From NCBI GenBank assembly GCA_965205025.1, contig CBDBFU010000023.1, positions 4,390-68,389 on the forward strand: a DNA stretch of 64,000 nt, read 5' to 3'. This stretch comes from Candidatus Poribacteria bacterium (GTDB lineage: Bacteria > Poribacteria > WGA-4E > WGA-3G). Below are positions 4,247 through 49,937 of the stretch, in pieces; position 1 is the stretch's first letter; every line of letters starts with the position of its first letter. The notes under the pieces were generated by a model, which saw only the letters and a program-made list of their open reading frames with translations, was not told the DNA's origin and ran no database searches. Made by a program: the position numbers and the translations under genes.

Positions 4247-5007
4247 CTAATAAGTTTGTTTTACCCAAGACCAAGTTATGGTGAGTTTATCATTTGGATC
4301 AACTGACAGAGGCTGCAAGTCCAGATCTTTTGTTACATCAACATAATTCGCTTTTCCAAATCCATCTTTACCATCGTTACCGTTCTTCGAATTATCTTTC
4401 GCATTACCTTCATCAAAAGTGTAGTGGGTATTAAGTTTTGGTTCATCACCAGAAAGTACTTTCTTCATGAATTCATTGATCTCTTTTTCAGTTCTTGCAA
4501 CTTCCCATATTCGAATCTCATCAATTAAACCTGTACAGAACCAGTTTTGACTATCCCCTACACCAATATAGAGTGGGGCATCGGTTGCTGCTAATTTCTT
4601 TGGTTTCAAATGGAAGTGACCCCATTTTTTTTCCCATCTATATATGTACGCATCTCTTTACCATCCCAAACACCAGCAACATGCTGCCATACATTCTGTT
4701 TCAATCCTTGAACATCAAGTATCTTCGTTCCTGGCCACAAGACAAACCTTAATCCGTTCCCATTCTGAATTATTTCAGGGAAAATGTAATCTCGTTTTCC
4801 ACCCCAATCCTTAGCAAGACATTCCCCATCAGGTGTATTCATATTCAACCATGCTTCAATTGTTATTGCGGTCTTAGGATTTAAACTATCACTATTTGGA
4901 ACTTCAATTGCTGTTTTACCATCTAATTCGAGTGCGAGGTTCTTCGCCCATATATTCATAGACATTAGACATAATACAATTATGCATAAATATACCAACT
5001 GTTTCAT
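4247..5007 (-). pseudogene. LamG (concanavalin A-like) secreted protein, split by one frameshift; carries the C-terminal KLTITWSWVK tag
   Basis: ORF 4606-5007 has a signal peptide plus LamG blocks (ITIEAWLN, WQHVAGVWDG, MRTYIDGKK). ORF 4247-4609 (TTG start) continues with the LamG end PLYIGVGD...FCTGLIDEIRIWEVARTEKEINEFM. The frames join if one nucleotide is added in the T8 run 4625-4632 or the adjacent ATTT. Confidence 0.7.
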
Positions 5008-14501: not shown

Positions 14502-15521
14502 TTGATGACATTGAGATACTTATTCAGTTGTTTGTGTTTATTCTTACTTACCACGTTTGTATCTGCAAAGATACTTTTTGACTCTACCCTCGGAACAACT
14601 TTTACTCCTGGAAAAGATTGGGACTATAATATCTTTATGATGAACGATGATGGTAGTGGTATCCGAAAACTCACAGACACTCCATTTTTAGAAATAAGTC
14701 CAAGGTGGGCACCTGATGGAAAAGCTATTGCTTTTGTGAGAGACCTTGATATCGCACTGACTACGGTTAGGCAAACCGATCTATTTATAAAATCTATAGA
14801 GGGAAATTTCGAAATTAGACTCACTCATCACCCAAAACAAGATGGTGGAGATATAGCGTGGTCCCCTGATGGAAGATTTATCGCTTTTGTAAGTACTCGG
14901 AATGGAAGTTTAGAGATATATAAAATAGATGTAGCAAGTCTCGTAATAACACAACTAACTAACAATGCATTATTAGGTGGTTTATCTGCTGCCCCAGATT
15001 GGTCTCCGAATGGAGAGCAAATTACTTATGAACAAGGTGTGCCAGGAATTGGAAGAACAATCTATATTATGGATGCTGATGGTAGAAATCAGAAACAACT
15101 TATTCAGCCAAACCAGCTTGTAAGATTTAGTCCACGATGGTCGCCAGATGGTGATACGATCCTTTATGGTGAAACTGAATTTAAACTTATTCCTAGAAAA
15201 CGGATTATAGTAGCAGTAAGTCTTGTGATTTATAACTTAGAGAGAAAAGAAATTCAGTTAATTATCACAATTCCTAATCGGTATAATATCAGTAAAATGT
15301 GTTGGATAGCCCCTGGTCATGAGATAGTTTTTAGTGCAAATAACACTGAAACAAACGGAAGAGGTATTTTTCGTTACCATATTGGAAGTAAACAATTGAC
15401 TAAACTCACTGATGGTCCAGAAGGAGGCGTTTATGTAGATTGGATAGAGGATGTAGCATTAGATGCGACACCTAACGGCAAACTGTCAATTCAATGGGGT
15501 CAACTCAAACGTAGTAATTAA
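14502..15521 (+). CDS. TolB-like PD40 beta-propeller secreted protein with C-terminal KLSIQWGQLK tag
   Basis: 339 aa, signal peptide. Repeated PD40 signatures: SPRWAPDGKAIAF, IAWSPDGRFIAFVS, PDWSPNGEQITY, SPRWSPDGDTILY. Confidence 0.75.
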   Translation: MMTLRYLFSCLCLFLLTTFVSAKILFDSTLGTTFTPGKDWDYNIFMMNDDGSGIRKLTDTPFLEISPRWAPDGKAIAFVRDLDIALTTVRQTDLFIKSIEGNFEIRLTHHPKQDGGDIAWSPDGRFIAFVSTRNGSLEIYKIDVASLVITQLTNNALLGGLSAAPDWSPNGEQITYEQGVPGIGRTIYIMDADGRNQKQLIQPNQLVRFSPRWSPDGDTILYGETEFKLIPRKRIIVAVSLVIYNLERKEIQLIITIPNRYNISKMCWIAPGHEIVFSANNTETNGRGIFRYHIGSKQLTKLTDGPEGGVYVDWIEDVALDATPNGKLSIQWGQLKRSN

Positions 15522-44564: not shown

Positions 44565-44958
44565 CTATAGGCGTCAATTTAAAAGCTTAGACTCTTCTGT
44601 AGGAGGGGATTCCGATTCCCGATCTTTCCTCACCCCAGATGAAGTTAAAAAAATAAAATAGGTAATTTGGACCCAGAGGCTGGTAGGTGCGGTTTCCTAA
44701 CCGTACTATAGGCGTCAATTTTAGACTATGATTTATTGGTTTTGAGTCCCGTAGGGACGGAATGTCTATAGAAAACGCGTTTATGCACTTTCTTGAGTCC
44801 CGTAGGGACGGAATGTTTATAGAAGTCGTTATCACCAATATCCCAAGCCCCAGCGGGGCGAAAGGTGTGTAGAAAACGTGAAAACACAAAACAATAAGCC
44901 CAGCGGGGCGAAAGGTGTATCCTAAATTGACGCCTATGGTGCGGTTTCCTAACCGTAC
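44565..44958. repeat. mosaic repeat block including a TIR-bounded ~230-bp element with a 4-unit 51-bp array
   Basis: CTATAGGCGTCAATTT occurs at 44565 (also at 47861). Inverted repeats ATAGGCGTCAATTT at 44708-44721 / 44924-44937. Hairpin units start at 44744, 44795, 44846 and 44897. 21-bp direct repeats GGTGCGGTTTCCTAACCGTAC at 44686-44706 and 44938-44958. Track ORF 44587-44889 merely translates these repeats. Confidence 0.8.
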
Positions 44959-45316
44959 CGGATTCTACAAGAAACTGGAAATTACCCGAATAAATTCTTT
45001 TAAGATTCTCCTCGGTGTCGTCGGTGAGCCGATGTAGATTGCTACCATCGTTATTAATAATATATACGGCGGACTTTTGCAGCTGCCTCGGTTCCACCGG
45101 CAGAAGTTTCCTAAAAGCAATCTGCTGACCATCCGGAGACCAAACAGGCCACCAGGCACTATATGCTCCGATCCTTTGGAGATTATTACCGTCATCATCC
45201 ATCACATAGAGACCGCCACCGGTGCGTACAGAACGATACGATAAAAAAACGATTTTTGCGGGTGCCAAACTCGGTAAGAATAACAGGAACAAGCAGTAGC
45301 AGAGGAGACGTTGCAT
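44959..45316 (-). pseudogene. 5' fragment of a PD40/TolB-like secreted protein gene, truncated by the repeat block
   Basis: MQRLLCYCLFLLFLPSLAPA signal peptide, then VMDDDGNNLQRI...WSPDGQQIAF...IINNDGSNLHRLTDD (PD40 units). After about 115 codons the reading frame runs into the repeats. Visibly more G+C-rich than its neighbours. Confidence 0.6.
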
Positions 45317-46457: not shown

Positions 46458-47237
46458 ATGCGTTTAATTTGTCTGATATTAGGAATTACTTTCTCAATTA
46501 CTTTACTGTTACCCCAAATTAGTACAGCAAAAATTGATCCAGAAACTGCTGCCGGAGTTTGGCTGTTCGATGAGGGTGCTGGTGATGATGCAGTCGATTC
46601 ATCTGGGAAAGAAAACCACGGAAAGATCAATGGAGCTAAATGGAAGGATGGTAAATTTGGAGAAGCCCTTGAATTCGATGGTGCACATTCGGTTTCAATT
46701 GAATCTACACCAGATTTACAATTAGGTGAACAACATACCATGATGGCTTGGTTTTATGCTAAAGATATTACCACATGGCGACAACTTATTGCTAAGAACA
46801 ATGAATATCTTTTACGGATTGATCCACCACAAGAAGGTAATAAAATGTCCTCGTTTGTTCATCTAGGTGGATGGGAACCCAGAGCTTCTGCAAGTGTTCC
46901 AGACACAGATACCTGGATTCATTTTGCAGCTACTTACGATAAGTCAGCAAACAATAACCAGCTTAACGTATATGTTAATGGTAAACAAGCCGGGGCAAGC
47001 ACACGTCCTGGGAATCCTGCTGGAAATGCTGATCCAGTTACCATAGGAACATGGAATGGTGGATCATTCTTTGTCGGAATTATTGATGAAGTCGCAATCT
47101 TTAAAGCTATATTAACAGAAGCGGATCTTCAGACCATTATGGATAATGGGTTAGATAAAGCATTAGGCGGTGTTGCTGCTGTTGATGCCAATGAGAAATT
47201 GGCGACCACATGGGCAAACCTGAAATCTGATAATTAA
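46458..47237 (+). CDS. secreted LamG-domain protein with C-terminal KLATTWANLK tag
   Basis: 259 aa, AAGGAG RBS, signal peptide. LamG blocks: GKFGEALEFDG, HTMMAWFY, IHFAATYD, LNVYVNGK, FVGIIDEVAIF. Confidence 0.85.
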   Translation: MRLICLILGITFSITLLLPQISTAKIDPETAAGVWLFDEGAGDDAVDSSGKENHGKINGAKWKDGKFGEALEFDGAHSVSIESTPDLQLGEQHTMMAWFYAKDITTWRQLIAKNNEYLLRIDPPQEGNKMSSFVHLGGWEPRASASVPDTDTWIHFAATYDKSANNNQLNVYVNGKQAGASTRPGNPAGNADPVTIGTWNGGSFFVGIIDEVAIFKAILTEADLQTIMDNGLDKALGGVAAVDANEKLATTWANLKSDN

Positions 47238-49173: not shown

Positions 49174-49199
49174 GAAACTACTATTTAGGAGGTATGGAT

Positions 49200-49937
49200 A
49201 TGCTTAGATTGTTCTTTATCGTCATTGGTCTCACAATTATCGGTCTTATAGCTAATATATCTGCAGATGTGTGGACTGATAATTTTGATGGTAATAAATT
49301 GGAAGAAGGATGGGAATTCCGTGATCATAATGCCAAAGCAACTAAGTACGAAGTAAAAGATGGATTCTTACACATCACCAATCCTGGAAATTGGGGACAC
49401 ACGACACCTGATAAACCAATGATTGAACGTGATATACCAAATAGTGCTGCAAAGAATATCACAGTAAGTGGAATATTTACGAGTGAACCTGATAAACCAG
49501 CTGATGCCTGGATTGGAATTTTTCTATATAGTGATAGTGATCTCAATTACGCCTGCTTCTTATTTGGCGGAGAATCAAATCAACCACAGAAGACTCTAAT
49601 CGGTAGTATGGTCAAGGGAAATTGGCAAGACAAAGGACATCCACAGACCGGTTTTGATGTTCCTCTTCATTTGAAAATTGTCAAAGAAGATGATACATTG
49701 TCAGGTTATTTTCGAAGAAATGAAAAAGAAGATTGGACACTTGCTGGTGGTAAAATGTGGAATCATAGTTTTAATATCAAACAAGTTGGTATTGGATTTA
49801 TGAATAATTGGGGTGGAAAGACTGTTACATTTATGATTGATCAATTATCTATTGAGGGGGACGGTATAAAACCCTTTTCTGTTGATCCTAACTCTAAATT
49901 AACTACCACATGGGGTAACATTAAAACTAATTCATAG
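49200..49937 (+). CDS. secreted concanavalin-A-like beta-sandwich protein (family unresolved) with C-terminal KLTTTWGNIK tag
   Basis: The track start 49194 is only 1 nt after AGGAGG (49187-49192). ATG 49200 has better spacing and gives the MLRLFFIVIGLTIIGLIANISA signal. DNFDGNKLEEGWEF...KDGFLHI resembles DUF1080/LamG-type jelly rolls. Confidence 0.7.
   Translation: MLRLFFIVIGLTIIGLIANISADVWTDNFDGNKLEEGWEFRDHNAKATKYEVKDGFLHITNPGNWGHTTPDKPMIERDIPNSAAKNITVSGIFTSEPDKPADAWIGIFLYSDSDLNYACFLFGGESNQPQKTLIGSMVKGNWQDKGHPQTGFDVPLHLKIVKEDDTLSGYFRRNEKEDWTLAGGKMWNHSFNIKQVGIGFMNNWGGKTVTFMIDQLSIEGDGIKPFSVDPNSKLTTTWGNIKTNS

Follow-up and report, generated by a model that had tools for sequence, protein, structure and literature searches.

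Some 145 exported proteins encoded by the Poribacteria genome examined here, and dozens or more in every other Poribacteria genome tested, end in a shared, flexible tail of roughly 20 residues, which is also found immediately in front of type IX secretion (T9SS) C-terminal domains (CTDs). Our preferred reading, which we hold to be about as likely as not, is that this tail is a sorting or attachment signal tied to a T9SS-like system in this phylum. We found no description of it in the papers we could search. A first-pass annotation made from sequence alone had proposed a modular, lineage-specific C-terminal address tag on exported proteins, based on four genes in a 64,000-nucleotide stretch (hereafter the window; positions 4390-68389 of contig C23 in a 5.66 Mb, 38.5% GC assembly). 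Our analyses support that proposal, and none of the results that had been named as capable of refuting it appeared. What could not be seen from the window is that the genome also encodes full-size T9SS CTDs and T9SS-like machinery, and that the tag is physically joined to those CTDs in conserved hybrid proteins. The tag is therefore probably part of, or derived from, that pathway. The features of the window that carry the tag are as follows.

49194-49937 (+), the focal gene, an intact ORF for a 247-aa exported protein with a ConA-like lectin fold
49875-49934 (+), the C-terminal tag of the focal protein, FSVDPNSKLTTTWGNIKTNS, residues 228-247, with the stop codon ending at 49937
46458-47237 (+), gene for a 259-aa exported LamG (Laminin_G_3) protein (PF13385, E = 1.2e-24), with its tag AAVDANEKLATTWANLKSDN at 47175-47234
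14502-15521 (+), gene for a 339-aa exported PD40 (TolB-like) beta-propeller protein (PF07676, E = 7e-26), with its tag LDATPNGKLSIQWGQLKRSN at 15459-15518
4247-5007 (-), a frameshifted LamG gene with a signal-peptide half at 4606-5007 and a C-terminal half at 4247-4609, with its tag SVDPNDKLTITWSWVKQTY at 4250-4306

Direct translation confirmed all four motifs, which conform to [AP]V[ED]P..GKL[TA]TTWG.[IL]K plus about 3 residues, and all four genes start with Sec-type signal peptides. The fourth motif lies on the minus strand, in a gene that is either a pseudogene or an assembly error but in which the tag is still intact. A second decayed member of a tagged family is found at 44726-45316 (-), where a 196-aa ORF has a PD40-type signal peptide and start (MQRLL...APAKIVFLSY) but no propeller end or tag. 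The description of the four carriers as unrelated requires one correction. Specifically, two of the four are LamG proteins, and the focal protein, originally described as a jelly-roll, is a ConA-like sandwich of the same broad fold class, such that only the PD40 propeller is clearly different within the window.

Genome-wide, the occurrence of the tag is far beyond chance. In a six-frame ORF scan, a strict regular expression identified 44 ORFs ending in the motif, whereas a seed HMM identified 133 and the iterated HMM converged at 145 (E<=0.01), with 0 hits among reversed C-termini and a single hit in the body of all ORFs. The consensus is hydrophobic-x-V-[ED]-P-x-G-K-L-[TA]-T-T-W-G-x-[ILV]-K, in which the W and the last K are invariant in 64 of 64 aligned tags. 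The tail following this Lys is 3 residues in about half of the cases ([SKAR][RKNQ][RKYQ]), ranges from 0 to 12, and is rich in R, K, S, Q and N. All synonymous codons are used at the conserved positions, so conservation acts on the peptide and does not reflect a DNA repeat or terminator artefact.

With respect to the proteins that carry it, the tag is confined to signal-peptide proteins, with 107 of 116 carriers of at least 200 aa (92%) possessing a signal-peptide-like N-terminus, as compared with 28% of other proteins (Fisher p = 4e-46). These values derive from a heuristic predictor rather than SignalP, and the exceptions are gene fragments. Following removal of the signal peptide and tag, the carriers (median 259 aa) fall into about 36 BLAST clusters, including 60 LamG proteins, 12 PD40 proteins, 9 giant proteins of up to 1,601 aa, and many singletons. 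At least 8 Pfam domain types are represented, among them Laminin_G_3, PD40, CBM9_1, CBM_4_9, HmuY and F5/8 type C, together with weak ConA-like and PA14 hits, and many carriers have no hit, including some that look alpha/beta. At the scale of the genome, the domain diversity is real. Apparent untagged paralogues in the LamG and PD40 families mostly carry degenerate tags. Notably, scans of the four window proteins and of the bare tag at E<=1 returned no Pfam or NCBIfam model that matches the tag.

Structural modeling indicates that the tag is not the last strand of a shared domain. The focal protein, which has no Pfam or NCBIfam hit, was modeled by AlphaFold with 31 orthologues (mean pLDDT 86) as a confident ConA-like sandwich that ends near residue 222, and Foldseek matched this fold to GH43 C-terminal ConA-like domains and lectins. 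The tag (HMM domain score 36.3 bits) follows at a pLDDT of about 58-63 and is not packed on the domain. K235 and W240 are invariant across 32 orthologues, down to 46% identity, while the linker before them varies. All 53 homologues found are 163-255 aa, too short to hold a CTD, and the 31 full-length ones aligned with the focal protein all end in the tag.

The tag profile hits 151 of 151 sampled Poribacteria genomes (22 genera, 9 families). We also scanned the genomes of 185,579 species with a degenerate DNA pattern. Of the 80 loci listed, 73 are titled Poribacteria, and of 91 pattern matches, 87 are followed by a stop within 7 codons. The exceptions are explained. Unlabelled bins carry more than 100 tags each, and a Synechococcus hit is due to chance, with that genome serving as a negative control that does not carry the tag. 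A 21.5 kb contig with two genuine tags (JAPPIL010000222.1, "Pseudomonadota bacterium RHO2_bin_21") sits in a 1.9 Mb bin that has only 5 tag hits in total, and is probably a Poribacteria contig mis-binned from the same sponge sample. A pelagic Poribacteria MAG from 3,000 m carries about 150 tags, which shows that the tag is not limited to sponge symbionts. Four IMG/VR contigs classed as viral, which may be true phages or host fragments, also encode tagged proteins ending in ...KLTTTWGEVKK or ...KLATTWGHLKSGK, of which two are full-length ~315-aa proteins with a signal peptide and two are fragments cut by the contig end.

In terms of machinery, we found that Poribacteria encode a T9SS-like set of proteins, in contrast to the genome analysis of Kamke et al. 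2014 (PMC3909097), which noted TIGR04183-like domains but no Por genes. We found no paper that describes a T9SS in Poribacteria. About 56 proteins in this genome (median length 854 aa) have a type-A CTD over the TIGR04183 cutoff, with consensus NYPNPFNPETWIPYQL...GVYFYTLTAGEFSATRKMLILK. Seven PorV/PorQ-family barrels exceed the NCBIfam cutoff, and 10-29 PorV-family matches are present in each of 13 other Poribacteria genome entries tested (two of which are the same assembly), as compared with 0 in Synechococcus. Three proteins with Propeptide_C25, Peptidase_C25 and FlgD_ig domains match the PorU sortase model NF033707, and one of these lies adjacent to a PorV gene. A single ORF of 2,160-2,340 aa shows collinear SprA matches in 7 of 7 genomes, although these remain below the curated cutoffs, so this SprA is divergent, and in the present assembly it is broken at a contig end. 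Members of this set lie outside the window at C32:129468-136961, C20:332717-339244, C2:157850-163027, C12:56829-57971, C28:221112-222062, C12:243872-244987 and C17:47-1345. The motor proteins GldL and GldM were not detected using TIGR03513 and TIGR03517 in 5 genomes, in searches for which no control genome gave a hit either.

The link between the tag and this machinery is provided by hybrid proteins. The single internal HMM hit noted above is a 619-aa FG-GAP/ASPIC protein that reads ...MVAVEPKGKQPVTWGKVKTAEVFQ-NYPNPFNPETW..., with a full tag directly before a CTD, and a second protein has a W-to-L variant. A DNA pattern encoding WGx[ILV]K, a 9-30 nt gap and then N[YF]PNPF occurs in 95 of 151 genomes and 11 of 22 genera, including the most distant classes, with 0 hits in the reversed control and a gap that is almost always 6 codons, and translations show the whole tag upstream. 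In the FG-GAP/ASPIC orthologue group, whose named members are all from Poribacteria, the arrangement persists down to 37-43% identity, with K at -7 relative to NYPNPF in 28 of 32, G at -10 in 30 of 32, and W, F or L at -11 in 30 of 32. In one FG-GAP/ASPIC homologue of unnamed source (P0161), the tag is tandemly duplicated before the CTD (...GKLPITLGQIKPHR-KLPIKLGQIKQTA-LLQNYPNPF). AlphaFold places the hybrid tag (residues 505-524, pLDDT below 50) in a disordered linker between a confident body and a confident CTD, which is the kind of linker in which PorU cleavage sites lie in known cargo (PMC11969387).

The ends of tag-only proteins also coincide with the CTD boundary. The 3-residue tails of tag-only proteins resemble hybrid junctions such as K-Q-N-R before LLQ-NYPNPF, and tag-only proteins therefore stop where the first strand of the CTD would begin. 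CTD-only cargo have their own P(-8)-[KE]-[KQ]-T(-5) motif, with P at -8 in 86% and K at -7 or -6 in 59%. The Trp that is invariant in tag-only proteins is relaxed to W, F or L in hybrids, which suggests a heavier functional load when no CTD is present.

Next to tagged genes, neighbour-family enrichment identified only abundant metabolic families and an FG-GAP/ASPIC + TPR cassette, with no peptidase or translocon. These cassettes (C11:12140-14631, C24:23894-26978, C26:59952-65603, C20:177787-181695) contain a 540-565-aa homologue of the FG-GAP/VCBS + ASPIC hybrid protein, often with a TPR protein, next to one to three tagged small proteins, mostly LamG. Five of the nine family members have a tagged gene within three genes (adjacent in three), and the one member with a CTD is the tag-plus-CTD hybrid. 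The few PorV genes within a few kb of tagged genes are instead paired with giant CTD proteins. Adjacent pairs of giant proteins (about 1,550-1,650 aa) were also observed at C27:56844-66902 and C7:197882-207970, in which the first ends in the short tag and the second in a full CTD, although BLAST did not detect homology between their bodies.

Taken together, these observations are consistent with a linear sorting motif that is read by a component of the T9SS-like apparatus. Our preferred candidate is one of the three PorU-type C25 enzymes, which would cut after the invariant Lys, release either the short tail or the tail plus CTD, and tether the new C-terminus to the cell surface, while one of the PorV-family matches may encode the shuttle or receptor. 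In tag-only proteins, the stricter conservation of the motif suggests that it has taken over the whole signalling role. This model remains an inference, as no experiment or structure shows binding or cleavage and no receptor was identified. Cleavage after Lys in particular is inferred only from the specificity of the C25 family, which appears to include the Lys- and Arg-specific gingipains, whereas known PorU sites prefer small residues. There is precedent for strongly shortened T9SS signals, as the CTDs of Prevotella intermedia can shrink to 43-55 aa and 22 residues of Hbp35 suffice for secretion (PMC11969387), and CTDs hold separable secretion and targeting signals that are read by specialised shuttles, as documented in Flavobacterium (PMC12618676).

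The tag differs from the established signals with which we compared it. Like a type-A CTD (TIGR04183/PF18962), it is C-terminal on Sec-exported adhesin, lectin and propeller-type proteins. However, it is only about 20 residues, is predicted to be disordered rather than an Ig-like sandwich, lacks motifs B, D and E, and lies N-terminal to the CTD when both are present, and hhalign of the tag profile against the poribacterial CTD plus 30 upstream residues gave a probability of 0.1%. This finds no support for a truncated CTD homologue. Conserved PorU cleavage-site motifs, for example PT/GI in Prevotella intermedia, are likewise short linear motifs in the flexible linker before the CTD, but the tag is much longer and more conserved than those described and, above all, is carried by about 145 proteins per genome with no CTD behind it. 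Tripartite signals such as LPXTG/sortase, PEP-CTERM/exosortase, GlyGly-CTERM/rhombosortase and MYXO-CTERM share a short signature motif (V-[ED]-P resembles PEP), an extreme C-terminal position, a K/R-rich tail, dozens to hundreds of unrelated substrates per genome and a lineage-restricted distribution, yet the tag has no transmembrane helix between motif and tail, no NCBIfam sorting model matches it, and no exosortase or sortase partner was identified. It is also unlike the beta-signal of outer-membrane proteins, as the tails are mostly R, K, S, Q or N rather than a terminal aromatic residue and the carriers are soluble lectin and propeller folds. If a C25 (clan CD) enzyme does cut after the Lys, the 3-residue tail would be a short leaving group, perhaps like those of asparaginyl endopeptidase/butelase ligases (N-HV tails) or GPI transamidase, although this is purely an analogy.

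A serious rival, which we regard as possible but less likely, is that the tag is an autonomous, lineage-specific envelope signal with no link to T9SS, read by an unidentified receptor or translocon that either secretes the protein or holds it non-covalently on LPS, an outer-membrane protein or peptidoglycan. On this view, its position before CTDs would reflect only a need to end up near the mature C-terminus, or past domain shuffling. The absence of detectable similarity to the CTD or to any Pfam or NCBIfam sorting model favors this view, as does the fact that tag-only and CTD proteins are almost entirely different families, with only 3 tag proteins having homologues that end in a CTD. The tag-only architecture is also stable across a whole orthologue family, and its invariant Trp and Lys may be typical of interfacial or LPS-binding peptides. 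As a weak point of the T9SS reading, the means by which a CTD-less protein would cross the outer membrane is unexplained. By contrast, the fixed 6-codon spacing of the phylum-wide hybrid junction and the termination of tag-only proteins at the CTD boundary are hard to explain without a functional link to CTD processing, and no alternative machinery emerged from the neighbourhood analysis.

The remaining alternatives appear improbable. A periplasmic quality-control, degradation or regulatory tag recognized by a C-terminal-processing protease or PDZ protein (Prc/CtpA/DegS type) would fit a flexible C-terminal element on exported proteins. However, PDZ-type readers need a precisely placed free C-terminus, whereas the tail here varies from 0 to 12 residues and the motif also occurs internally before an 85-aa CTD, and it is implausible that about 3% of the proteome, all binding modules, would be constitutively marked for degradation across a whole phylum. 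That the tag is no signal at all, but rather the last strand of a cryptic domain or an inert scar of CTD loss, might be suggested by the many beta-sandwich carriers and the coincidence of tag-only ends with the CTD boundary, but is already largely refuted. Both AlphaFold models leave the tag unpacked, it also sits on PD40 propellers, HmuY, giant and alpha/beta-looking proteins, and its Trp is kept more strictly in tag-only proteins than in hybrids, the opposite of what a decaying scar would show.

In a bolder version of the T9SS model, which has an appreciable chance of being correct although it is less likely than not, the disordered peptide would act as a complete stand-alone signal that takes more than 100 small folded proteins per cell across or onto the outer membrane without any CTD, read by one branch of the greatly expanded PorV family or by a PorU-type sortase. 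If so, it would be the shortest known outer-membrane sorting signal of a diderm bacterium and a new class of cargo for a T9SS-like machine that may lack the GldLM motor.

Overall, the tag marks about 3% of the predicted proteins of a dominant, uncultivated sponge-symbiont phylum, and the tagged set is almost entirely carbohydrate- and ligand-binding modules, which are the proteins most likely to touch the host matrix. A defined 20-residue signal offers a ready way to predict the poribacterial surface or secreted proteome, as well as a portable tag for surrogate T9SS hosts. The presence of PorU, a divergent SprA and a strongly expanded PorV family in a phylum outside Bacteroidota revises the statement in its reference genome paper that Por genes are absent. 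Finally, the natural series of CTD-only, tag-plus-CTD and tag-only proteins is a ready-made dissection of which part of a T9SS signal serves translocation, shuttle binding, or cleavage and attachment.
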